A program made the translations under genes and the position numbers. Below, piece by piece: positions 10,942 to 44,485 of a stretch of DNA of 45,360 bases. Source of the stretch: Bacillota bacterium (GTDB taxonomy: Bacteria; Bacillota; Clostridia; Christensenellales; CAG-138); contig JAEZGQ010000002.1 in the NCBI GenBank assembly GCA_023416895.1, positions 1 to 45,360 of the forward strand, in the 5' to 3' direction. Positions within the stretch are counted from its first letter, which is position 1, and each line of letters begins with the position of its first letter. The notes under the pieces are model-generated. The model was not told the origin of the DNA. It searched no databases and saw only the letters and a list, made by a program, of their open reading frames with translations.

Positions 10942-12372
10942 TTATTCGGTGCTGTTTACCACTTCTCGTACTAAAATTGTCTTTAGTATTTGCGGGTCTG
11001 CCTTGCCGGTGGCGGCTTTCATCACATACCCCATCAGCGCTTGCAGCGCATCCGCTTTTCCGGCACGGTAATCGGCAGCGGCCTTGGGGTTTTCTTTGAT
11101 CGCTTCTTTTACAAGCGCCGTCAGCGCCGCCTCGTCGCGGAGCTTAAAAAGCCCCATTTCTTCAGCCAAAGTACCGGGGGCTTTGCCGGTCTCCCACATG
11201 GCGCGAAGCACCTGTTTTGCGGCGCTTGCGCTTAGGCTGCCGTTTCCCATCATTTCGCACAATGCGGCAAAATGGACGGCATCGATCCGTGCGGCAATGC
11301 TTTCCTCAGCTTCGCGCAAACGAAACACCGTTCCTATGAGAAGGTTTGCAGCAACTTTGGGGTAGGCAGTTTGCTGCGCCACGGCCTCAAAATAATCCGC
11401 CACTTCGCGTTCGAGCGTCAGCTGCGCGGCAATGGGGGCGGCGAGGTTGTAACGCGCCATGTAGCGCCGCTTTCGTGCCTCGGGCAAAACGGGGAGCGCG
11501 GCGGCGATTTTCTCTACCTCGGTACGGTCGGTCACGATGGCGCACAAGTCGGGGTCTGGGAAGTAGCGGTAGTCGTCCGCATTTTCCTTGCGGCGCATGG
11601 TGTAGGTTTTGCCGCTTGCTTGGTCGAAACGGCGCGTTTCCTGCACGATCGCTTCTCCGGCCTCAATCGCGCGTATCTGGCGAGCTGCCTCGTACTGTGC
11701 CGCGCGGCGCACAGATTGGAAGGAGTTGAGGTTTTTGATTTCCGTGCGCTGTGTGAGAGCGCTCTCGCCAAGCTTGCGCACCGAAAGGTTCACGTCGCAG
11801 CGCATGGAGCCCTCGTTCATTTTGCAGTCGGAAATGCCTGTGTAAAGAAGAATGGCGCGGAGCTTTTCCAAAAAAGCGGCAGCTTCCTCGGGGCTTCTCA
11901 AATCCGGCTCGGTCACGATTTCGATGAGGGGAACGCCGCAACGGTTGCAGTCGAGAAGCGTGCCATGTACGGGATCATGTGTGAGCTTGCCCGCGTCCTC
12001 CTCCAGATGGATGCGGGTGATCCGCACGGTTTTTTCTCCTTGTTCGGTTTCAAGCGTTATATAGCCGTTTGCGCAAAGCGGAAGGTCGTACTGCGAAATT
12101 TGATACGCCTTGGGGAGGTCGGGGTACACATAGTTTTTGCGGTCGAGTTTGGAATAAGGTGCTATAGCACAGTTTGTTGCAAGCCCCGCGCGTATGGCGT
12201 ACTCGACTGCCGTACGGTTAAGCACGGGAAGTGCGCCCGGCATGCCCGTGCAAACGGGGCATATCTGCGTGTTGGGTGGAGCCCCGAAGGCAGTAGAACA
12301 GGAGCAGAAAATTTTCGATTGGGTTTTTAGCTCCACATGAATTTCAAGGCCGATTACAATTTCATACATCAT
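10942..12372 (-). CDS. gatB: Asp-tRNA(Asn)/Glu-tRNA(Gln) amidotransferase subunit B
   Basis: The sequence reads MYEIVIGLEIHVELKT...CPVCTGMPGALP, continues with typical GatB core motifs, and ends in a YqeY-like tail. The start overlaps the gatA stop (ATGA). Confidence 0.95.
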   Translation of the reverse strand: MMYEIVIGLEIHVELKTQSKIFCSCSTAFGAPPNTQICPVCTGMPGALPVLNRTAVEYAIRAGLATNCAIAPYSKLDRKNYVYPDLPKAYQISQYDLPLCANGYITLETEQGEKTVRITRIHLEEDAGKLTHDPVHGTLLDCNRCGVPLIEIVTEPDLRSPEEAAAFLEKLRAILLYTGISDCKMNEGSMRCDVNLSVRKLGESALTQRTEIKNLNSFQSVRRAAQYEAARQIRAIEAGEAIVQETRRFDQASGKTYTMRRKENADDYRYFPDPDLCAIVTDRTEVEKIAAALPVLPEARKRRYMARYNLAAPIAAQLTLEREVADYFEAVAQQTAYPKVAANLLIGTVFRLREAEESIAARIDAVHFAALCEMMGNGSLSASAAKQVLRAMWETGKAPGTLAEEMGLFKLRDEAALTALVKEAIKENPKAAADYRAGKADALQALMGYVMKAATGKADPQILKTILVREVVNSTE

Positions 12373-13844
12373 GCTTCACCTCCAAAGGCAGGCGCGCTCA
12401 TGTGGTAGGCGCCGTACGCGCGCTCAAACGACGCGCCGAGCGCGAGAAGCGTACTTTCGTCAAAGGCTTTTCCGATAAGCTGCATCCCAACGGGAAGCCC
12501 GTCCGTTTCGCCGCAAGGCATGGATAGCGCAGGAAGACCCGCGATGTTCACGGGAACGGTGCAGATATCGCCGAGGTACATGGCAAGCGGGTCGCCTATT
12601 TTTTCGCCGAAGGGGTAGGCTGTGGTAGGGGTAGTGGGGGTGAGCACCGCGTCAAAGCGGCAAAACACTTCATCAAACGCCCCCGAAAGAAGCGTGCGCA
12701 CCTGAAGCGCTTTTTTGTAATAGGCGTCGTAATAGCCCGCGCTAAGTGCAAACGTGCCAAGAAGAATGCGACGTTTTACCTCCGCACCGAAGCCCTCGCT
12801 GCGAGAGCGAAGGTAAAGCTCCTCAAGCGTTTCGCAGTTTTTTGCGCGGTAGCCGTAGCGCACGCCGTCAAACCGTCCGAGGTTTGAGCTTGCCTCGGCG
12901 CTTGAAATGATGTAATAAGCGGGCAGCGCGTGGGAAAGCGAAGGCATGGAAACCTCTTCTACCTTCGCGCCGAGCGATTCAAACCGTTGCGCCGCATGAA
13001 GCACGGAATCCTTTACACCCGCGTCGATGCCCGCACCGAAGAATTCGCGCGGCAAAGCAAGGCGCATCCCTGAAACCTCCCGTTCGAGCGCGCGCTGAAA
13101 CCCTGTTGTTAAATTAGGCACGGAGGTAGAGTCGTGTTCGTCGTAGGCACAGATGGCGTCGAGTACAATGGCGCAATCCTCTACGGTCTTCGTAAAAGCG
13201 CCGATCTGATCGAGCGAGGAGGCAAACGCCACAAGCCCGTAACGCGAAACGCGCCCGTAGGTGGGCTTCATGCCCACGATGCCGCAAAATGCCGCGGGCT
13301 GGCGGATGGAACCGCCTGTGTCGGAGCCCAAAGCATAGGCCGCTTCGTCGGCCGCTACGGCGGCGGCCGAGCCGCCCGAGCTGCCGCCAGGTACGCGCTT
13401 TAATTCACGCGGGTTTTTGGTGGTTTGGAATGCGGAGTTTTCGGTGCTCGAGCCCATGGCGAACTCATCCATATTTGTTTTTCCAAGAAATACCGCGCCC
13501 GCGTTGGAAAGCGCTTTTACAACGGTTGCTTCGTAAGGCGCACGGAAGTGCTCGAGTATTTTAGAGGCGCAGGTGGTATGGCCAAAGGCCGTGCAAAGGT
13601 TATCTTTGAGTGCGGCGGGAATGCCTGAAAGCGCTGGCAAATCCTCGCCCGAAGCACGCCGCGCGTCGATCCTCGCGGCTGTGTCAAGCGCCAAGTCCGC
13701 AAAAACCGAAAGGTACGCGCTGATGTGCGGCTCAACCTTTTCTATGCGCGAAAGGTAAGCCGCTGCGGCCTCCACGGCGCTCAGTTCGCGCGCGACAAGT
13801 TTTGTGCTAAGCTCCTTTATGCTCATGTGTGTAATGTCTTTCAT
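12369..13844 (-). CDS. gatA: Asp-tRNA(Asn)/Glu-tRNA(Gln) amidotransferase subunit A
   Basis: Amidase signature GGSSGGSAAAVAA and DTGGSIRQPAAFCG. The start overlaps the stop of the upstream aspS-gatC ORF (ATGA), and a GGGAGGA RBS is present. Confidence 0.95.
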   Translation of the reverse strand: MKDITHMSIKELSTKLVARELSAVEAAAAYLSRIEKVEPHISAYLSVFADLALDTAARIDARRASGEDLPALSGIPAALKDNLCTAFGHTTCASKILEHFRAPYEATVVKALSNAGAVFLGKTNMDEFAMGSSTENSAFQTTKNPRELKRVPGGSSGGSAAAVAADEAAYALGSDTGGSIRQPAAFCGIVGMKPTYGRVSRYGLVAFASSLDQIGAFTKTVEDCAIVLDAICAYDEHDSTSVPNLTTGFQRALEREVSGMRLALPREFFGAGIDAGVKDSVLHAAQRFESLGAKVEEVSMPSLSHALPAYYIISSAEASSNLGRFDGVRYGYRAKNCETLEELYLRSRSEGFGAEVKRRILLGTFALSAGYYDAYYKKALQVRTLLSGAFDEVFCRFDAVLTPTTPTTAYPFGEKIGDPLAMYLGDICTVPVNIAGLPALSMPCGETDGLPVGMQLIGKAFDESTLLALGASFERAYGAYHMSAPAFGGEA

Positions 13845-15937
13845 AGGCTGTCCTCCCGTTCAATGGCGGCGGGAACACGGATGTAGTCCCCGTAAAGCTC
13901 AGGCGCGTTTTTAAGAAGCGGAGCCTGCTCAAAAAAGTTTGCTTCGTCGGTTCGCAAAACGTTTTGAAGCGGGGCGATGTGCGCGGCGGGAGCGATGCCT
14001 GTGGTGTCGACCCCGTTGAGCTGCGAAGCAAAGCCGAGGATTGCGCCAAGCTCTTTTTGAAGTGTGCCGCGCTCATCTTCATTAAGCGAAAGCGAGGCGA
14101 GCTGCGCCACGCGCGCAATGTCGAAAGCAGCTGTGGAGGGGGAGTTTGGCGAAGCGTGTATGGTAGGAGCTCCATCGCCAAAGGCGGAAATGTGAAGCTC
14201 CTTGAGCTGTGCATCCTCCACAGGATCGGGCGCATTGGTCAAAAGGCATTTCGCATCCTTCGTTTTGGGGAAGGCGGTCACGTCGCGCAGGGAATCCGCG
14301 CCGCTTAAAAGCATCACAAACCGGTCGAGCCCAAAGGCAAAGCCGCCATGCGGCGGGGTGCCGTAGCGAAACGCGCGGATGAAAAACCCGAAGCGCCGTT
14401 CAACCTCTTCGTCGCTAAGCCCAAGCGCCTGAAACATGGCCTGCTGCACGTCGCTTGAATGAATGCGTACGCTGCCACTGCCTAGCTCCACGCCGTTGAG
14501 CACCACATCGTAGGCCTGTGCGCGCACGCGGGCGGGGTCGCTGAGCAAATACGGAAGATCCTCCTCGTGCGGCATGGTAAACGGGTGATGCGAGGCGACA
14601 AAGCGTTTTTCCTGTTCGCTGTATTCAAACTGCGGAAAGTCCACCACGAAAAGAAACGCAAACGCGGCCTTGTCGCGAAGATCGAGCATGTCGGCAATTT
14701 CAAGCCGGAGCGTACCGAGCGTACGCCGCACGGTGGCAAGCTTATCCGCGCAAAAAAGAACAAAGTCGCCGTTTTCAGCGCCGGTTCGGGAAAGGATATC
14801 CTCCCAAGCTTCTTGCGTGAAATACTTCTGGAGAATGGAGTTTACGCTGCCATCCTCGCGTAGCATGATCCAAGCCATGCCCTTTGCGCCGCATTGGATC
14901 GCGCGCTTGGTAAGAAGCTCGATTTCCGTTTTCGTGAAGCGCGCGCCGCCTTTCACTGTGAGAGCGCGCACAAAGCCACCCTTTTGCACAACGCTTTGGA
15001 ACACCGAGAACCCGCTTTTAGCGGCAATGTCCGTTACGTCGAGAATGGGCATTGCAAAGCGGAGATCCGGTTTATCGCTGCCATAAAGATCCATGGCTTG
15101 CTGCCATGTAAGACGCAGAAACGGCTTCTCAAGCTCGATGCCCATCACGGTTTTCATCAAGCTTTTGAAAAGCGTTTCAAGGTGAACGAGAATATCTTCT
15201 TGCGTTACGAAGGAAAGCTCCATGTCAAGCTGGGTGAATTCCGGCTGGCGGTCAGCTCTTAAATCTTCATCGCGGAAGCAGCGGGCCACCTGATAATAAC
15301 GGTCGAGCCCACCTACCATCAACAGCTGCTTGAAAATTTGCGGGCTTTGGGGGAGCGCATAAAACTCACCCGCGTGTACGCGGCTTGGCACAAGGTAATC
15401 GCGCGCGCCCTCCGGCGTGCTTTTGGTGAGGATGGGGGTTTCCACATCTACAAACCCTTGTGCATCAAGGTAATCGCGCGCAGCCTTTACCACCTTGTGG
15501 CGAAAGCGCAGCGCCTGCTGCATTTGCGTGCGGCGCAAATCGAGGAAGCGGTATTCCATGCGAAGATCCTCGCGAATGCGCGCGGAATCCTCCAAGGAAA
15601 AGGGGAGCGGAGCGGCCTCGGAAAGGACTGTAAACGAATCGGCCCTCAACTCGATGGTGCCGGTTTTGAGCTTTTCGTTGTAGGTTTGTGCATCGCGAAT
15701 GTACAAAAGCCCCTCCGCGCTCACAACCGATTCGAGCCTTGCGTTTTCCGCCGCATAAAACGCGCTCTCACCAAGAAGCGCCTTATTGCATACGACCTGC
15801 AATGTCCCCGTATAGTCGCGCACGTCAAGGAATACAACCCCGCCCATGTCGCGCTTGTGAAAGACCCAGCCGCTCACCCTGATGCGCTGCCCAACGCGGT
15901 TTTGCGTCGGCGTGCCGCAGTGCTCTGTTCGGTACAT
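13841..15937 (-). CDS. aspS: aspartyl-tRNA synthetase (likely non-discriminating) fused in frame to a full-length GatC domain
   Basis: ATG 15937 follows GGAGGTG. The AspRS class II core is present (FLDVRD, QSPQIFKQLLM, FRDEDLRADRQPEFTQLD, GLDR). The C-terminal ~94 aa (FDIARVAQLASLSLNEDERGTLQKEL...YIRVPAAIE) is GatC-like. No stop codon separates the two parts. Confidence 0.85.
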   Translation of the reverse strand: MYRTEHCGTPTQNRVGQRIRVSGWVFHKRDMGGVVFLDVRDYTGTLQVVCNKALLGESAFYAAENARLESVVSAEGLLYIRDAQTYNEKLKTGTIELRADSFTVLSEAAPLPFSLEDSARIREDLRMEYRFLDLRRTQMQQALRFRHKVVKAARDYLDAQGFVDVETPILTKSTPEGARDYLVPSRVHAGEFYALPQSPQIFKQLLMVGGLDRYYQVARCFRDEDLRADRQPEFTQLDMELSFVTQEDILVHLETLFKSLMKTVMGIELEKPFLRLTWQQAMDLYGSDKPDLRFAMPILDVTDIAAKSGFSVFQSVVQKGGFVRALTVKGGARFTKTEIELLTKRAIQCGAKGMAWIMLREDGSVNSILQKYFTQEAWEDILSRTGAENGDFVLFCADKLATVRRTLGTLRLEIADMLDLRDKAAFAFLFVVDFPQFEYSEQEKRFVASHHPFTMPHEEDLPYLLSDPARVRAQAYDVVLNGVELGSGSVRIHSSDVQQAMFQALGLSDEEVERRFGFFIRAFRYGTPPHGGFAFGLDRFVMLLSGADSLRDVTAFPKTKDAKCLLTNAPDPVEDAQLKELHISAFGDGAPTIHASPNSPSTAAFDIARVAQLASLSLNEDERGTLQKELGAILGFASQLNGVDTTGIAPAAHIAPLQNVLRTDEANFFEQAPLLKNAPELYGDYIRVPAAIEREDSL

Positions 15938-15959
15938 AACGCCACCTCCAAAGAAAAAA

Positions 15960-16272
15960 TGAATAAAAAAACACAGCCAATCGTCCCTCTTTGGGACGAA
16001 AGACTGTGAGCCTTTCGCGGTACCACCCAATTTGGCGTAAATACGCCCTCTTTATAACGACGCGCGAACTTGCCGCGGATCGCCTACGGCTATAACGCGC
16101 CGTGCGCGTCCGAGCCTACTTGCCGCCAAAACAGGGGCTTTCGGTCGGAGGCTCCGAGCTGTTCTTCCCCTGCGCCGCCGTGCCGCGCTTTCACCTTGCC
16201 GCGGCTCTCTAAGACATTGTACGCAGGATACTCTTCTCATCATCGCCTGAATGAAAATACAATTATATTATG
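15960..16272 (-). promoter_or_regulatory. T-box riboswitch leader of the aspS-gatC/gatA/gatB operon, candidate specifier AAC (Asn)
   Basis: On the minus strand I see a K-turn (TGATGAGAAGAGTA), an AGAGAG bulge, a GGTGAAAG distal loop and a specifier-loop context GAAG-AAC-A (AAC at 16161..16163). The T-box sequence AAATTGGGTGGTACCGCGAAAGG lies at 16009..16033. A terminator (CACAG..TCGTCCC-AAAGA-GGGACGA..CTGTG + T7) follows. Confidence 0.85.
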
Positions 16273-16275
16273 AGC

Positions 16276-16304
16276 ATTATATGCGCGCGCATTCGCATTG
16301 TCAA
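16276..16304 (-). promoter_or_regulatory. sigma-A promoter of the T-box leader (TTGACA-17-TATAAT)
   Basis: Minus strand reads TTGACAATGCGAATGCGCGCGCATATAAT. Confidence 0.75.
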
Positions 16305-16387: not shown

Positions 16388-16424
16388 CGAAAAAGAAAAG
16401 CCGGGTAGCGATTTTACCCGGCTT
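16388..16424 (-). terminator. intrinsic terminator after MCP-1
   Basis: Minus strand reads GCCGGGTA-loop-TACCCGGC followed by TTTTCTTTTT. Confidence 0.75.
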
Positions 16425-16439
16425 CAAGTTCATGCTATT

Positions 16440-19001
16440 TTAGAAAGAATATTTTCCAAAACCGCCGTCCATACGAATGTCCTTGCTGCTTTGTGCCGGA
16501 CGAGCTTGTTTTTGCGGCGCATTTGTCTGCTTTGCCTGTGGGGCGGTGGCCTCCTTCACGGTGAACTGGCTCACCTGCTGCCGGAGCATTTCCGCCTGCC
16601 CGCTGAGCTCCTCACTTGTTGCGGCTTGCTCTTCGGCAGTGGCAGAATTCGTTTGCACCACCTGTGACATCTGCTCAATGCCCCTGTTCACCTGAGAAAT
16701 GGCCGTCGCTTGCTCGTTGGAAGCGGCTGCAATATCGCTTACGAGCTTTGCGGAAGCCTCTACCGCTTCTACGATGCGCTTAAGCTCTTCGGCGGTTTCG
16801 TCCGCAATCATGGAGCCGACTTCCGCTTTTTTTACCGAGCTTTCGATAAGCGCCGTTGTCTCCTTGGCGGCTTGGGCACTCTTGCCTGCAAGGTTCCTTA
16901 CTTCCTCAGCGACTACGGCAAAACCCTTTCCATGTATACCCGCGCGCGCCGCTTCCACAGCCGCGTTGAGCGCGAGGATGTTCGTTTGGAACGCGATGTC
17001 GTCGATCACCTTGATGATCTTGCCGATGCTGGAGGATGCCTCGTTGATCTCCGCCATTGCGTTCTGTAGTTTTTCCATGTGCTCGCTGCCGCCCAAAGCA
17101 CGTGCCCGTGCACCGCCGCTCAGCTCGCTCGCCTTGGTCGCACCCACGGCGTTTTCACGCGTTTGCCCCGCGATGGCGCTGATGGAAGCGGTAAGCTGCT
17201 CAATCGCACTCGCCTGCTCCGTTGCGCCCTGCGAAATAGCCTGGCCTCCGGCGGAAACCTGCCTGGTTCCTGCTGAAACCTGATCAGCCGCGGTACGGAT
17301 GTCTGAGAGCACTGCACTCATGGAATCCGCAATGGTGTTGACGGAGGTTTTAAGCTTCAAAAATTCGCCGCGGTATTCTCCCGTTATGGCAATGTTAAAA
17401 TCACCGCTTGCCATATGGGAAAGAAGCTCACTCAACTCGCCGATATAGCCGCGCAGCGTTTCAATGGTATCGTTGAGCGCATGCTTAATGGTGGCATAGT
17501 CGCCTTTGTAATCGCCTTCTACAGCAATGTCAAGCCTGCCTTGCGAAAGCTCGACAAGTACATTGCTCGCTTCGTTCACAGGCTCTATCACGGCGTCGAG
17601 CGTGCTATTGATGCCTTCAAGAATTTCCTTATATGCGCCCTGATGCTTTTCGGGGTCGGCACGGTAAGCAAGGTTGCCGCTAAGCGCTGCCTGGGTGAGG
17701 GAATTCGTATCTTCCACAAGCTCGTTGAGGGTGTTGCTCACACCGCAAATGGCGTTGAAAATCGTGCCGAACTCGTTTTTCTGCTTTACGCTTTCGGTGA
17801 TGTTCAAATCGCCCTTCTTAAGGCTTTCGGTAACCTTCACGATCTTTTTCACGGGGGATACAAGCCGGAAAATGTTTAGGAAGGTCGCTAAGAACATAAC
17901 CGCAACACCACCGAGGATCAGCAGCAACACATTTCGCAACATGGCGTCACGGCTGCCGTATGCTTCGGAAGTTTCCACGGCAAAGGCGCTGGAAAACGAT
18001 GTATCCATGTGGGAAAGCGAAATGGGCCGGTAAAAGATATAGGCAGGGTTTCCGGCGATGGACGTTGCGTCGTTTTTAAAAAGAGCCTCTCCATTTTTTA
18101 CTGCTGCGAGCGCTTCGGATACATCCGTATCCGCGGCGTCGCTGCCGTATACAGTGCCTACCCGACTGGCATCTCTCGAATGGGAGAGCAAGGTGCCGCT
18201 GTTGGTGAGAATGTAGCTGTATGCGCTTGTATAATCGCCTGTCTTCTGCCCGAGCGCACTGAGCTTTTCAACAGTGATGTTGCAGCATACCGCGCCCACA
18301 AAAGTACCGGTGCCGTTTGTAATGGGGTAACTTACTGTTACCACGGATTTGCCGCCGGCCATGTCGTTTGCGTAAGGTTCGGAAAAATGGGGCACGCCGG
18401 AAGACTGTACTTCGTTATAGGCTTCCATGGTGGAATACACTGCATAGTCGTTGCCGGTAAGGCAGGTAACGCCGGCTCCGTCGCGGTAAACATAGAAAGA
18501 AAGGCCGGTTGGTGTGTTGTCGACGATCAGATTAGGCACCCATGCCACATAAACGCTGTCAATTCTGTCGTCGTTCAGACAATCCTTCAGCGTCTTCTGT
18601 ACAATTTTTGAGAAGGTAGGCTTATCAAGGCCGCCATCCGAAAGCCTTCCCATGAAGATGGAGAGGGAGTCCGCATAAGCGGAAACGGCACCGAAAAATT
18701 CGGAAACCTCCGCTGCGTTCTGCTCAGCCAGCATTTCAACGTTCTTTTGCGCGTTCTTTGTTAAAACATCCGAAAGAGAAAGGTTCAGATACGCGTATAT
18801 CGCCGCCATCACCGCAAACAAAGCAAGCAGTACGACAGCCGTGATATGAACCGATAGCTTGTGAAAAATCTTTGCCTTTGCAAGGGGTTCGGTGACGGGC
18901 TTTGTTTTTGCTTGCAAGGTTTTTTTGACGCGTGGTCTGAAAATGGGGTGGTTTTTGAACTTGGTCCGGATGCTCTGCAAAAATTTACTCGTTTTCTTCA
19001 T
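16440..19001 (-). CDS. methyl-accepting chemotaxis protein (Cache-like periplasmic sensor, HAMP/linker repeats, MCP signalling domain)
   Basis: ATG 19001 follows GGGAGGAG. There are two TM segments flanking a ~290 aa external domain. The conserved hairpin reads [37 protein letters not shown]. Confidence 0.9.
16551..17900 (-). repeat. ~1.35 kb segment (TM2 to signalling domain) closely similar to 19325..20677
   Basis: The encoded C-terminal ~450 aa of the two MCPs align without gaps and with few substitutions. By eye, the DNA matches at roughly nine positions in ten. Confidence 0.8.
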
Positions 19002-19176
19002 TGCTCCTCCCAAATATACCGTATCCTATAAAAAATAAGTCATACTATTAGTTCGTGACTTTTTCGTCCAAAAATTAGCAATTTCGACATAATAATAATA
19101 TACGCATTGCCGCCGGGAAGCAAATATATTGAATTCATGTCTATTTTCAGCCATGTTGGAAAAACAAACGGCGTTG

Positions 19177-19312: not shown

Positions 19313-21709
19313 TTACGTTGTGGCCGTTTCCTTTATGTTGAATTGGCCCACCTGCTGGCGGAGCATTTCCGCCTGCCCGTTGAGCTCCTGGCTCGTTGCG
19401 GCCTGTTCCTCGGCGGTGGCGGAATTCGTCTGTACCACCTGCGACATCTGCTCGATGCCTCTGTTTACCTGCGAAATGGCCGTCGCCTGCTCGTTGGATG
19501 CGGCGGCGATGTCGCTCACAAGCTTTGCGGAGGCCTCTACCGCGTCTACGATGCGCTTAAGCTCTTCGGCGGTTTCGTCCGCGATCTTTGAGCCAGCCTC
19601 CGTTTTTTTCACTGAACTTTCGATGAGCGTCGTTGTTTCCTTGGCAGCTTGCGCACTCTTGCCCGCAAGGTTTCTTACTTCCTCGGCGACTACCGCAAAG
19701 CCCTTGCCGTGCACGCCCGCACGCGCCGCTTCCACCGCCGCGTTGAGCGCGAGGATGTTCGTTTGGAATGCGATGTCGTCGATTACTTTGATGATCTTCC
19801 CGATGCTTGCGGACGCTTCGTTGATTTGAGCCATCGCGCCCTGCAATTTTTCCATATGCTCGCTGCCGCCCAAAGCACGTTCCCGTGCGCCGCCGCTCAG
19901 CTCGCTCGCCTTGGCCGCACCTACGGCGTTTTCACGCGTTTGCCCCGCGATGGCGCTGATGGAGGCGGTAAGCTGCTCGATTGCGCTCGCCTGCTCGGTT
20001 GCGCCCTGTGAAATGGCTTGGCTCCCATCGGATACCTGCTTTGTTCCGGCGGAAACCTGATCCGCAGCGGCGCGGATGTCCGAAAGAACATGGCTCATGG
20101 AATCCGCAATGGTGTTGACGGAGGTTTTGAGCTTTAAGAATTCGCCGCGGTATTCGCCCGTGATGGCAACGCTAAAGTCTCCGTTTGCCATGCGGGAAAG
20201 AAGCTCGCTCAATTCGCCGATGTAACCGCGCAGGGTTTCAATGGTGTCGTTGAGCGCATGCTTGATGGTGGCGTGATCGCCCTTATAATCACCTTCCACG
20301 GCAATGTCAAGCCTGCCCTGCGAAAGCTCTACAAGTACGTTGCTGGCTTCATTTACGGGTTCGATCACAGCGTCGAGGGTGCTGTTGATGCCGTCGAGAA
20401 TCTCCTTGTATGCACCCTGATGCTTCTCAGGGTCGGCGCGGTAAGCAAGGTTGCCGCTATGGGCCGCCTGGGTGAGGGCTGTCGTATCGTCCACAAGCTC
20501 GTTGAGGGTGCTGCTCACGCCGCAGATGGCGTTGAAAATCGTACCGAACTCGTTTTTCTGCTTCACGCTTTCGGTGATGTTCAAATCGCCTTTTTTAAGG
20601 TTTTCTGCGACCTTCACGATCTTTTTCACGGGGGATACAAGCCGCAAAATGTTAAGGAAGGTGGCTGCGAACATAACAACAGCGCCGACAATGATCACAA
20701 CAAGCAACTTTGCCATGATCGCATCGTGCTGCGCCATCATTTCGGAAGTGTCTACGACAAAGGCACTGGAATACGCGTAGCTGAAACCGTCCGGCTTGAT
20801 GGGCCTGTAAATGATGTGGGCCGGGTTTCCAGTGACTGCGTTTACACCTTCGGTACTTAATGCAAGACCGTTTCCTACTGCATCCAAAACCTTTGCTGCG
20901 TCCGTATCGGCAGTGGTGTCGCTCCCGTATGCAGTGCCGACGCGTTCGGGGTGAACGGAGTGGGAAAGAATCGTTCCCGCGTTTGTAAGCGTATAGTTGT
21001 ATGCGGTGTCATAGCCGCCGTGAGCAGCGGCCAGATCATTGATCTTGTTTGCGTTGATGTCAAAATTAACAACGCCAAGTACTTTGTCACTCGCGTCAAA
21101 AACGGGATAGCTCACAGTCACAAGCCAGTTGACGTCGCCGTTATACACTGCGTCGTCGTATGGCTCCGTGAGGTGTGCAGCACCTGTTTCAAAGGATACG
21201 GAGTAATACTCAAGCGAGCGGTATTCACTGTAATTGTTTTTAATTTCCGTAAGTAACTTGTCGCCATCGGTGCGGCATACGTAAAATGACAGGCCATTTG
21301 GCGTGTGAGGTTCTCCGGCGTTTGGTTCCCATGCAACGTACGCGCCGAAAATTCGCTCGTCATCCAAGTATTGTTTGAGGGTGGCAACGATGGAGTTTTC
21401 ATACTGCATCTTGTTCATATCCGCATTAGCAAACTGCTCCATCTGAATGGAGAGTGACTTCGCATACGAAAGCATGGAGGAAAAGTACTCTGTGAGTGTC
21501 TGTGCGTTTTGTGTGGCAAGCAGCTCCGCTTTTTCCTTAGCGCTTGCTGACATAGCCGACGAGAGGGAGTTGCCCATGATTGCATAGATTACGCCCATTA
21601 CTACGACAAGGGAAGCGAGCACAACTGCTGTAACCATAAAGGTTAACTTTTGCCAAGCTTTTTGTTTGATTAGTTGCTTCAAGACCAAGAACCTCCAAGT
21701 TAATACCAT
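19313..21709 (-). CDS. methyl-accepting chemotaxis protein, paralog of the neighbouring MCP with a divergent Cache-like sensor
   Basis: Same domain order and conserved hairpin as MCP-1. An alternative start at TTG 21682 (MKQLIKQK...) lies 9 nt after GGAGG and may be the true start. Confidence 0.9.
19325..20677 (-). repeat. second copy of the ~1.35 kb MCP cytoplasmic-module repeat
   Basis: See 16551..17900. Confidence 0.8.
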
Positions 21710-23559: not shown

Positions 23560-25401
23560 ATGTGCGGAATCACAGGGGTGATCCATTATGAACAAAACCT
23601 GTCCGAACGCCGCGAAACCATCGTGCGTATGATGGATACGTTAAAGCGGCGCGGGCCGGATGACGCGGCGTTTTACGCGTCGCCCCATGCGCTTTTGGGG
23701 CATAGGCGGCTTGTGGTTGTGGATCCGGAGGGCGGCGCGCAGCCCATGCAGAAAACTGTGGGGGGAACAACCTATACCATCGTTTACAATGGCGAGCTTT
23801 ACAACACGGAGGAGCTCAGGAGGGAGCTTGCCGCGCTTGGTTTCTCGTTCCGTTCCTATTCGGATACGGAGGTGCTTTTGTGCGCGTACATCGCTTGGGG
23901 GACGGGCTGCGTGAAAAAGCTCAACGGCATTTTCAGCTTCGGGGTGTGGAACGAGCGCGACGAAACGCTTTTTTTGTGCCGCGACCCGCTTGGCGTAAAG
24001 CCGCTTTATTACGCGAAAAAGGATGGTGCGTTTTTGTTCGGCTCGGAAATTAAGGCCATTTTGGCGTACCCGGGCATGCGGGCAGAGCTCGACGGGGAGG
24101 GCGTGCTGGAGCTTATCGGGCTTGGCCCCGCGCACACGCAATCAAGCGGTGTGCTCAAGGGCATTTCGCAACTTCCGGCTGCGCACTTTTTGCTCTGTGG
24201 CAAAGAGGGTTTTCACATCGAGGAATACTGGAGGCTTTCGAGCCACACGCACGAAAAAGACCCGCAGGAAACCGCGCAGGAGGTGCGGACGCTCCTTGTT
24301 GACGCTGTGAAGCGCCAGCTCGTAGCCGATGTGCCGGTTTGCACCTTCCTTTCGGGCGGGCTTGATTCAAGCGCCATTTCCGCCATCGCGGCAGCCGAGT
24401 TTGAAAAGCGCGGGGAAAGGCTCAACACTTTCTCCATTGAATACGAAAACAACGCCGATTTTTATAAGAAAAGCGACTTTCAGCCCGACGCGGATGATCT
24501 GTGGGTGGACGTGATGGCGGAGCACATCAAAAGCAGCCACACGCGGGTGGTACTCAACAACGCTACGCTTGCAGACGCACTCCTGGATGCTGTGCGCGCC
24601 AACGATATGCCCGGCATGGCGGACATCGACTCGTCGCTTTTGCTGTTTTGCGCGGAGGTCAAAAAGAAGGCAACCGTTGCGCTTTCCGGTGAGTGTGCGG
24701 ATGAGATCTTCGGCGGCTATCCGTGGTATGTGCGAAAGGACTTGGCCTATGCGGGCACATTCCCATGGTCGGGCGCTGTGAAAGAGCGCGAGGCGCTTCT
24801 TACCTCGGGTGCAAAAAAGCTCGACTTGCCCGGCTATGTGCAAATGCGCCACCTTGAAACCGTAAACGCAACGCCGCTTTCAGGCGCGGAAAACGCGGAA
24901 GAGGCGGAGCACAAGCGCATGTTTTACCTCAACATCAAGTGGTTTATGAACACGCTTTTGACGCGCAAGGATCGCATGAGTATGTTCAACAGCCTAGAGG
25001 TGCGCGTGCCGTTTGCGGATCACCGCATCGTTGAATACGCCTACAACATCCCAAAGGATATGCTGTTTTACGGCGGGCGTGAAAAAGGGCTTTTGCGCAC
25101 GGCCATGCAGGGCATTTTGCCCGAAAGTGTGCTCTGGCGGAAAAAAAGCCCGTATCCGAAAACTTTCAACCCCGTGTACACGGCGCGCGTTACAAAAGCG
25201 CTGCAAACCTACCTTGAAGACGGCGACTTGCGGCTTTCACAATTTTTGGATGAAAGCGCCGTCAGGGAGCTTGTGGAAACGGAAGGCCGCTCCTTCCAGC
25301 GCCCTTGGTACGGGCAGCTTATGACGGGCCCGCAGCTGATCGCGTACCTTGTACAGCTTGAATACTGGCTCAGGGAATATGACGTGAATGTATTCTTTTA
25401 A
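23560..25401 (+). CDS. asnB: asparagine synthase (glutamine-hydrolysing)
   Basis: MCGITG N-terminal nucleophile, an Ntn amidotransferase domain, and the SGGLDSS PP-loop. Confidence 0.92.
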   Translation: MCGITGVIHYEQNLSERRETIVRMMDTLKRRGPDDAAFYASPHALLGHRRLVVVDPEGGAQPMQKTVGGTTYTIVYNGELYNTEELRRELAALGFSFRSYSDTEVLLCAYIAWGTGCVKKLNGIFSFGVWNERDETLFLCRDPLGVKPLYYAKKDGAFLFGSEIKAILAYPGMRAELDGEGVLELIGLGPAHTQSSGVLKGISQLPAAHFLLCGKEGFHIEEYWRLSSHTHEKDPQETAQEVRTLLVDAVKRQLVADVPVCTFLSGGLDSSAISAIAAAEFEKRGERLNTFSIEYENNADFYKKSDFQPDADDLWVDVMAEHIKSSHTRVVLNNATLADALLDAVRANDMPGMADIDSSLLLFCAEVKKKATVALSGECADEIFGGYPWYVRKDLAYAGTFPWSGAVKEREALLTSGAKKLDLPGYVQMRHLETVNATPLSGAENAEEAEHKRMFYLNIKWFMNTLLTRKDRMSMFNSLEVRVPFADHRIVEYAYNIPKDMLFYGGREKGLLRTAMQGILPESVLWRKKSPYPKTFNPVYTARVTKALQTYLEDGDLRLSQFLDESAVRELVETEGRSFQRPWYGQLMTGPQLIAYLVQLEYWLREYDVNVFF

Positions 25402-43785: not shown

Positions 43786-43814
43786 TTGAAACAAAAGCGG
43801 GGAGATGATAAAAT
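43786..43814 (+). promoter_or_regulatory. promoter of the fluoride riboswitch-crcB unit (TTGAAA-17-TAAAAT)
   Basis: Hexamers and spacer were counted directly. The predicted TSS lies just before GGGAATGAAG. Confidence 0.65.
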
Positions 43815-43819
43815 CTCCT

Positions 43820-43909
43820 TTGGGAATGAAGTTCTCCCCCGGCAATTTGCCGAAACTGCGGTTGGCTGATGACTTCTATGCTGTTTGCGTGGAAGCGTCG
43901 GCTTTTTTT
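43820..43909 (+). promoter_or_regulatory. fluoride (crcB motif) riboswitch with terminator expression platform
   Basis: The sequence GGGAAUGAAGUUCUCCC ... AAACUGCGGUUGGCUGAUGACUUCUAUG resembles the crcB motif (GGnGAUGnnnnUCnCC ... GGCUGAUGAnnnCUnC). AAGU and ACUU are pseudoknot partners. A hairpin plus T7 ending at 43909 follows, directly upstream of crcB. Confidence 0.7.
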
Positions 43910-43924
43910 GTGAAAGGCGGCTTT

Positions 43925-44293
43925 ATGAAAACGGTTCTTTTGGTGGGGCTTGGCGGCATGATCGGCACGATTTTAAGGTATTTGCTCGGGCTTGTTCCCG
44001 TACAGGGCGACCTTCCGCTGGTTACGCTTTTGATCAATTTTTCGGGCTCGTTCGTCATCGGCATGGTTGCGGGGCTTGCTGCATGCTCGCACCTGAATGG
44101 CGATGCTGTGCTTTTCTTGCGCACGGGCATCTGCGGCGGGTTTACCACGTTTTCCGCATTTTCTTTGGAAACCTTTCAGCTTTTGGAGAGCCGCAAATTT
44201 GCCGCCGCTGGCATCTACGCAACGCTGAGCGTGGTGCTTTGCGTTGCTGGTGCGGCGCTTGGCTATGCGTTTGCCCGCTTGGTGGCCGAATAA
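43925..44293 (+). CDS. crcB: fluoride channel CrcB/FluC
   Basis: The sequence reads MKTVLLVGLGGMIGTILRY...GICGGFTTFSAFSLE. It has four TM helices and is 122 aa. Confidence 0.9.
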   Translation: MKTVLLVGLGGMIGTILRYLLGLVPVQGDLPLVTLLINFSGSFVIGMVAGLAACSHLNGDAVLFLRTGICGGFTTFSAFSLETFQLLESRKFAAAGIYATLSVVLCVAGAALGYAFARLVAE

Positions 44294-44341
44294 ACGCTGC
44301 GTTCCTCCGGCAAGCTATGAAAAAAGAAAGGGGAACGCTTT

Positions 44342-44485
44342 ATGGGCAACAAAATGAAAAGCACGCACAACAAAAAGAAGGAAGACGGCAAATTCCGCTC
44401 CAAACATGTAAAGCATGACCCGCCTGCGGAAAGCGCCCGCGCAGTGTTTGGCAAAAAGGGGCCGGAAGAAGGTTCCTTCGATTGA
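44342..44485 (+). CDS. possible 47 aa highly basic small protein (below the ORF-track cutoff)
   Basis: ATG lies 8 nt after AAAGGGGA. Translation is MGNKMKSTHNKKKEDGKFRSKHVKHDPPAESARAVFGKKGPEEGSFD. The stop overlaps the TTG start of the next gene. Confidence 0.35.
   Translation: MGNKMKSTHNKKKEDGKFRSKHVKHDPPAESARAVFGKKGPEEGSFD

Follow-up and report, generated by a model that had tools for sequence, protein, structure and literature searches.

The window analysed here, a stretch of 45,360 nucleotides (nt) from the Bacillota bacterium contig JAEZGQ010000002.1 (assembly GCA_023416895.1; Clostridia, Christensenellales, CAG-138), carries on its minus strand an operon, aspS::gatC-gatA-gatB, in which aspartyl-tRNA synthetase (AspRS) and GatC, a subunit of the amidotransferase GatCAB, are encoded as one continuous polypeptide. 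The AspRS-GatC fusion is full-length on both sides and is evolutionarily maintained. All the parts of a transamidosome (AspRS, GatC, GatA and GatB) are encoded in the operon, and upstream of the fusion lies a control region that the first-pass annotation of this DNA overlooked, consisting of a sigma-70 promoter and a complete T-box leader (Table 1).

Table 1. Coordinates of the operon, its control region and other elements of the window (ORF, open reading frame; aa, amino acids; SD, Shine-Dalgarno sequence; pLDDT, predicted local distance difference test score)
Feature	Position	Strand	Description
Sigma-70 promoter, TTGACA-17 nt-TATAAT	16276..16304	-	12/12 matches; predicted driver of leader and operon
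T-box leader (Rfam RF00230)	15989..16252	-	Complete model, 1-219; 116.4 bits, gathering score 93, E 3e-25
Specifier loop 3' side, GAA-G-AAC-A	16160..16167	-	From model alignment and sequence
T-box sequence AAAUUGGGUGGUACCGCG, with UGGUACC	16014..16031	-	In predicted antiterminator
T-box intrinsic terminator	15964..16008	-	14-bp interrupted helix (15972..16008), then U-run
SD GGAGG	15945..15949	-	7 nt ahead of ATG 15937; read from sequence
aspS::gatC fusion ORF	13841..15937	-	698 aa plus stop; ORF listing, Pfam, NCBIfam, homologues
AspRS moiety, residues 1-585	14183..15937	-	OB anticodon-binding domain, class II catalytic core, GAD insertion; bacterial type
Linker, residues 586-604, FGDGAPTIHASPNSPSTAA	14126..14182	-	Disordered (pLDDT < 50), non-conserved spacer
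GatC moiety, residues 605-698	13844..14125	-	Full length; PF02686, TIGR00135, 2DF4_C alignment
gatA SD GGGAGGA	13851..13857	-	Within last codons of fusion, in C-terminal extension REDSL
gatA	12369..13844	-	491 aa, Amidase family; ATG overlaps fusion stop (ATGA)
gatB	10942..12372	-	476 aa, GatB_N and GatB_Yqey; ATGA overlap onto gatA
AsnB-type glutamine-dependent asparagine synthase	23560..25401	+	613 aa, N-terminal MCG nucleophile, PF00733 and GATase_7
Fluoride riboswitch (RF01734)	43813..43885	+	36.7 bits, gathering score 34

A single minus-strand frame stands open between 16030 and 13841 in the ORF listing of the window, and the ATG at 15937 is the sensible start, because GGAGG precedes it at 7 nt and the N-terminus that it yields, MYRTEHCG, aligns with those of homologues; the 698-residue ORF read on first pass between this ATG and the stop at 13841 is thereby borne out. 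The TTG at 16030, considered as a start, was rejected because it falls inside the conserved T-box core. Pfam divides the product into tRNA_anti-codon (residues 20-105), tRNA-synt_2 (123-560), GAD (313-407) and GatC (618-688), the accessions matched on the AspRS side being PF01336, PF00152 and PF02938. That side reaches 810 bits on the AspRS equivalog NF001750 (cutoff 443; residues 1-584) and 741 bits on the bacterial AspRS model TIGR00459 (cutoff 374), its core motifs are invariant across 120 homologues, and bacterial AspRS chains in the PDB (580-620 aa) match fusion residues 1-585, with the match ending at about 585. The GatC side covers the whole Pfam profile (PF02686, positions 1-66 of 66, E 8e-17) and scores on the gatC model TIGR00135 67.6 bits within the fusion (residues 606-693) and 72.6 bits alone, against a cutoff of 47.1; residues 8-99 of Staphylococcus aureus GatC (2DF4_C) align to it, residue 8 corresponding to fusion residue 606. 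The complete AspRS and the full-length GatC domain proposed on first pass are thus both confirmed, the former by the Pfam set and NF001750 and the latter by the PF02686 and TIGR00135 matches. A six-frame hidden Markov model scan of the window found no GatC domain other than that of the fusion, and agrees with the earlier judgement that the ORF at 13807..14235 in another frame is not GatC-like. This GatC is adjacent to gatA and gatB; it is not the free-standing polypeptide of about 95-100 aa that GatC would otherwise be, there being no stop or start between AspRS and GatC. The coordinates likewise agree with the ATGA overlaps reported earlier between the fusion and gatA and between gatA and gatB. 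In the window protein and its closest relatives, a C-terminal extension (...AAIE-REDSL) runs past the usual end of GatC.

The same polypeptide recurs well beyond this contig. Four contigs of different projects, ENA ERZ27268868 and Logan SRR13358386 among them, encode a protein identical to it over all 698 aa; in its 90% cluster, ten members drawn from ENA, Logan and NCBI assemblies have the full 698 aa, and two more, one of which is marked partial, measure 660-664 aa. The best 120 homologue clusters (58-100% identity) are all 685-771 aa long with GatC and AspRS domains. Species-representative genomes were scanned with a junction-spanning profile, and the counts of loci given here are those of the matches listed, which are a sample. 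In at least 32 loci the match passes through the linker into GatC; the lineages among the matches listed are Feifaniaceae, Christensenellales, Oscillospiraceae, Tissierellaceae, Peptostreptococcaceae (Acetoanaerobium) and Epulonipiscium, as well as Mageeibacillus, Limiplasma, Clostridiaceae and unclassified Clostridia. Twenty-eight relatives with a complete gene (691-704 aa) are open in frame from the AspRS N-terminus to the end of GatC, so that the comparison of orthologous loci suggested on first pass reveals no stop codon at the junction. Wherever the locus extends far enough, all 32 fusion loci listed have the order aspS::gatC-gatA-gatB. Among the 48 plain-AspRS loci listed, none has gatC, gatA or gatB in its flanks, and no intermediate aspS-stop-gatC locus occurs in this sample. 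In a neighbour-joining tree of the AspRS parts, calculated without bootstrap, the fused sequences form one clade apart from the plain AspRS of other Clostridia. The fusion is widespread in Clostridia.

Only about 14-20 residues belong to neither AspRS nor GatC, in keeping with the linker of about 20 aa described on first pass and placed here at residues 586-604, and the frame is open through the junction without a stop or a separate gatC start, as had also been stated. Across 29 fusion loci, the window's and those of the 28 complete relatives, the linker varies in sequence and in length (18-31 aa). In an AlphaFold2 model built from 120 sequences, the pLDDT of AspRS is for the most part about 90 or higher but falls locally to about 50 around residues 170-230; at residues 586-604 the pLDDT is below 50, and within GatC the two N-terminal helices alone reach moderate confidence. 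Nor does the model dock GatC confidently on the AspRS of the same chain. Weak order of GatC in a monomer model would be expected of a subunit that becomes ordered only on GatA and GatB, and the predicted disorder of the linker fits a role as a tether. In many relatives (L002-L035, residues about 583-610), a Lys/Arg-rich patch such as KKKK or KKKEKK sits just ahead of GatC, and the linker of the window protein has no basic residues; to judge from its composition, the patch of the relatives might be a tRNA contact or plain low-complexity sequence.

The first-pass annotation had left open whether this architecture was already in the databases. It is, and it is widespread in Clostridia, which limits the novelty of the fusion and leaves the observation standing. 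NCBIfam holds a model, NF009460/PRK12820, named 'bifunctional aspartyl-tRNA synthetase/aspartyl/glutamyl-tRNA amidotransferase subunit C', with which the window protein shares its architecture from end to end (residues 6-691 on model positions 25-721 of 723), but the score of the protein is 621 bits where the curated cutoff is 1379, and values of 590-673 bits were obtained for ten other Clostridia fusions. Because the clade falls below the cutoff, the NF009460 equivalog represents another, narrow lineage. NCBI names the window clade plain 'aspartate--tRNA ligase', and the Ligaoa zhengdingensis protein carries the automatic UniProt/UniRef label 'Multifunctional fusion protein'. For three fusion fragments in a representative library (P0126, P0127 and P0128), unlike the window clade, NF009460 outscores the plain AspRS model, which points to at least one more divergent fusion lineage; when representatives were searched with the junction and GatC segment, the top matches were mostly short metagenomic fragments. 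Another entry of that library, P0121 (363 aa), joins an SdhA/FrdA-like N-terminal piece to an AspRS tail and GatC, and probably reflects a chimera made in assembly or gene calling, not a real protein. PDB chains include no natural AspRS-GatC fusion, no paper describing one was found in the searchable literature, and the Sheppard 2008 review makes no mention of fusions or operons. The fusion is thus a large, under-annotated clade of an already catalogued architecture and no new category. Since its members are annotated as plain AspRS, many metagenome-assembled genomes (MAGs) of gut and rumen Clostridia will appear, in automated reconstructions, to lack gatC and hence a complete GatCAB.

The control region gives the operon its own regulation. 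Eight promoter-like sites occur in the region where 2.2 are expected, and the one listed in Table 1 is the sole perfect site; it sits 24 nt upstream of the start of the T-box. Farther upstream lie two tandem dCache/HAMP/MCP chemoreceptor genes (16440..19013 and 19313..21709, both on the minus strand), the nearer of which ends in a strong terminator at 16397..16425, and since this terminator isolates the T-box operon from them, the operon is its own transcription unit. The leader has the specifier loop expected of a T-box, in which the GAA of the S-turn is followed by the codon and then a purine: the Asn codon AAC occupies 16161..16163 with an A next to it at 16160, one nucleotide farther from the GAA than in the canonical register, and an overlapping GAA (Glu) occupies 16162..16164. 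The resulting GAAC at 16161..16164 constitutes the two-codon 'NT-box' arrangement of overlapping AAC and GAA ahead of a transamidation operon. The terminator folds with a minimum free energy of -31.5 kcal/mol (z = -4.5), which none of 200 shuffles equals, and its helix is predicted to compete with the antiterminator that holds UGGUACC. Rfam detects a T-box above the gathering score in 14 of the 28 related fusion genes, and an nhmmer profile extends the homologous leaders to 25 of the 29 loci, namely the window's and those of 24 of the 28 relatives; one leader is partial. All 24 readable related leaders carry AAC, followed by A in 23; 21 of the 24 read GAAC, and the remaining three (L015, L016 and L023) read AAAC, so that the Glu codon is lost and AAC kept. 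Because AAC is an Asn codon, the operon would appear to be set to respond to how far tRNA-Asn is charged. The conserved Asn-specifier T-box also makes a clean set of sequences for comparison within the 'shifted/two-codon' class of specifier loops.

The closest known counterpart of this locus is in Clostridium acetobutylicum, in which a T-box ('NT-box') controls an aspS-gatCAB transamidation operon (PMC4052509, PMC4574755, PMC4206432) through overlapping specifier codons for tRNA-Asn (AAC) and tRNA-Glu (GAA) (PMC4052509). Both are operons of Clostridia that unite AspRS and GatCAB behind a T-box with overlapping GAA and AAC, and in both genomes an asparagine synthetase co-exists with the operon, here AsnB. 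The primary papers on the C. acetobutylicum operon are reportedly those of Saad et al. in JBC (2012) and PNAS (2013), and aspS and gatC are said to be separate genes there, unlike the single ORF of the window. The use of both codons is a prediction for the window leader, and the three AAAC relatives depart from the dual arrangement.

The predicted components are also those of the non-covalent Asn-transamidosomes of Thermus thermophilus (3KFU), Pseudomonas aeruginosa (4WJ3) and Helicobacter pylori, in which a dimer of non-discriminating AspRS joins GatCAB and tRNA-Asn; the AspRS of P. aeruginosa and H. pylori is, like that of the window, of the bacterial type with a GAD domain. The proposed purpose is the same, namely that Asp-tRNA-Asn is handed over without release. 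Contacts of tRNA and protein are all that hold the known complexes together, whereas in the window GatC is part of the synthetase chain. Four GatC chains are present in 4WJ3, and the AspRS sequence has five chains over 4WJ3 and 4WJ4, whose split between the two entries is not stated; we read the AspRS:GatC ratio in 4WJ3 as 1:1, which is what a fusion would enforce. The H. pylori Asn-transamidosome, which is bacterial-type and GAD-containing, is dynamic (PMC3367201), and since bacterial-type Asn-transamidosomes are dynamic, a tether would plausibly add something. The same work holds that sharing of GatCAB between two synthetases favours dynamics (PMC3367201), and because it ties sharing to dynamics, a covalent tether may, by analogy, make most sense where GatCAB serves the Asn pathway alone. 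An engineered precedent exists in the GatC-linker-GluRS protein (PDB 3AL0, chain C) with which the Gln-transamidosome of Thermotoga maritima was solved. There too GatC is joined covalently to the non-discriminating synthetase of the same pathway, although that construct is man-made, runs the other way round, from the C-terminus of GatC to the N-terminus of GluRS, and involves the synthetase and tRNA of the Gln pathway. Its crystallisation shows, by analogy, that such GatC fusions can be structurally viable.

Taken with these comparisons, the locus most likely makes Asn-tRNA-Asn by means of a covalently tethered transamidosome, and it is probably best described as an operon of three genes and four functions that serves tRNA-dependent asparagine formation, its first enzyme being joined covalently to its second. 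The first-pass annotation had raised the idea of a 'hard-wired transamidosome'; as a function, this is the best supported of those considered (synteny in 32 loci, the AAC T-box and the disordered linker), while the physical assembly that the term implies is inferred. Class II AspRS enzymes are dimers, and GatC is a belt around GatA and GatB. On this basis, the strong promoter would drive the T-box leader, and uncharged tRNA-Asn, paired through its anticodon to the AAC specifier, would stabilise the antiterminator by way of its free 3' end and permit read-through into aspS::gatC-gatA-gatB; tRNA-Glu may act likewise via the overlapping GAA. The ATGA overlaps would couple translation of the three ORFs. 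The AspRS moiety would dimerise in the manner of class II AspRS, each protomer bearing GatC at the end of a flexible linker some 20 residues long and each GatC wrapping one GatA-GatB pair, giving a particle of composition (AspRS-GatC)2-GatA2-GatB2 with an obligatory 1:1 ratio of AspRS to GatC. The AspRS, presumed to accept tRNA-Asn, would make Asp-tRNA-Asn, which the tethered GatCAB would amidate to Asn-tRNA-Asn before it could escape to EF-Tu. We infer, then, that the AspRS charges tRNA-Asn, that assembly proceeds through the fused GatC, that the tether may bring some kinetic or fidelity benefit and that free GatC is absent.

Several observations weigh against this interpretation. The position equivalent to His31 of P. 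aeruginosa AspRS, which is reportedly diagnostic for non-discrimination (Bernard et al. 2006), is Met in 27 of the 29 fusion proteins and Leu in two, and is never His; in sampled plain AspRS it is His in 14, Leu in seven and Phe in two, and Met matches neither of the two states reported for the signature. Our view of the genome is the 45-kb window, and a second AspRS, a free gatC, AsnRS or GlnRS encoded elsewhere would lie outside it; no AsnRS was found among the annotated window proteins, not every window ORF having been checked. The AsnB-type asparagine synthase lies 8 kb away, so that the tRNA-dependent route need not be the sole source of Asn. Rfam finds no T-box ahead of this gene, and its proximity to a tRNA-dependent Asn operon suggests that Asn can be made by more than one route, a redundancy reported for some Clostridiaceae. 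No T-box was detected within 420 nt upstream of four of the 29 fusion genes (L007, L020, L022 and L027), which may be controlled in another way or belong to longer operons. Finally, GatC fusions are not automatically benign, as Mycobacterium smegmatis illustrates: GatC-GatA fusion mutants have impaired fidelity and raised mistranslation (PMC7541841), and by analogy a fusion can be harmful. There, as here, loss of a stop codon joins GatC to the product of a neighbouring gene of the gat operon, but the M. smegmatis mutants were selected in the laboratory and are fused at the C-terminus of GatC, whereas in the window the N-terminus of GatC is fused and the arrangement is conserved in nature.

A bolder form of the tethered-transamidosome reading can be offered only tentatively. 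The fused AspRS of the clade may be a dedicated paralogue that, with GatA and GatB permanently attached by way of its GatC tail, forms a single two-step 'asparaginyl-tRNA synthetase' particle, induced only by uncharged tRNA-Asn and operating apart from a housekeeping AspRS. It would be a natural obligate transamidosome, in which the tether replaces tRNA-dependent assembly, and its existence would depend on GatCAB not having to serve a Gln pathway as well in these organisms.

Of the explanations that dispense with any benefit of the tether, the one that survives best, though we consider it unlikely, is a neutral fusion: the aspS stop would have been lost in an ancestral aspS-gatC-gatA-gatB operon and the tether tolerated, with no gain in channelling or fidelity and with GatCAB and AspRS working as they do when unfused. 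The unfused arrangement that C. acetobutylicum is said to have under the same type of T-box is consistent with such a history, as are the unconserved linker sequence and the lack of confident docking of GatC on AspRS in the monomer model. However, the fusion has been kept across a deep clade, at identities down to 58% over the whole protein and 41-67% in the C-terminal region, and in many families, with no reversion among the 32 loci listed. The restriction of linker length to 18-31 aa moreover suggests a constraint on the tether, and the Lys/Arg-rich patch often present before GatC in relatives also argues against neutrality.

It is improbable that the polypeptide is separated during or after its synthesis, by internal initiation or by proteolysis of the linker, into ordinary free AspRS and GatC. 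An exposed, disordered linker, as modelled, would in principle be accessible to proteases, and in the window an AAGGAG lies 6 nt ahead of an in-frame ATT, which the first-pass annotation took for a relic of a gatC ribosome-binding site that left independent initiation of GatC open. ATT is a very rare initiator. The AAG-GAG codes for the Lys-Glu of LKEL, a conserved motif of the AspRS tail that is also seen in the compared C-termini of plain AspRS, and it occurs in only two of the 29 loci. An SD-like sequence followed by a start codon is found in six of the 29, at unrelated positions, and no Met or other start is conserved at the beginning of GatC in any of these comparisons. Because the AAGGAG is rare and coding, the SD and start pairs are non-homologous and no Met is conserved, neither the relic nor independent initiation finds support, and both are rejected on the comparison of the 29 loci.

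A sequencing or assembly artefact, in which an indel removed the stop or a frameshift between separate aspS and gatC genes, has only the general proneness of MAG contigs to indels in its favour and can be dismissed, given the identical protein on four contigs of independent assemblies and in its 90% cluster, the same frame in 120 homologue clusters and 28 complete relatives, and the lack of a start codon for a separate gatC; the indel that the first-pass annotation wished to see excluded is not borne out.

Should the tether work as proposed, nature would handle the toxic, mischarged Asp-tRNA-Asn by covalent linkage, the same trick as that used artificially by structural biologists to capture the Gln-transamidosome in 3AL0. 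The fusion proteins, among them that of Ligaoa zhengdingensis, which is in culture, would lend themselves to cryo-electron microscopy and to kinetic study of channelling in bacterial-type transamidosomes, which are otherwise dynamic. Elsewhere in the window, the fluoride riboswitch listed in Table 1 lies directly 5' of an ORF at 43885..44418 on the plus strand.

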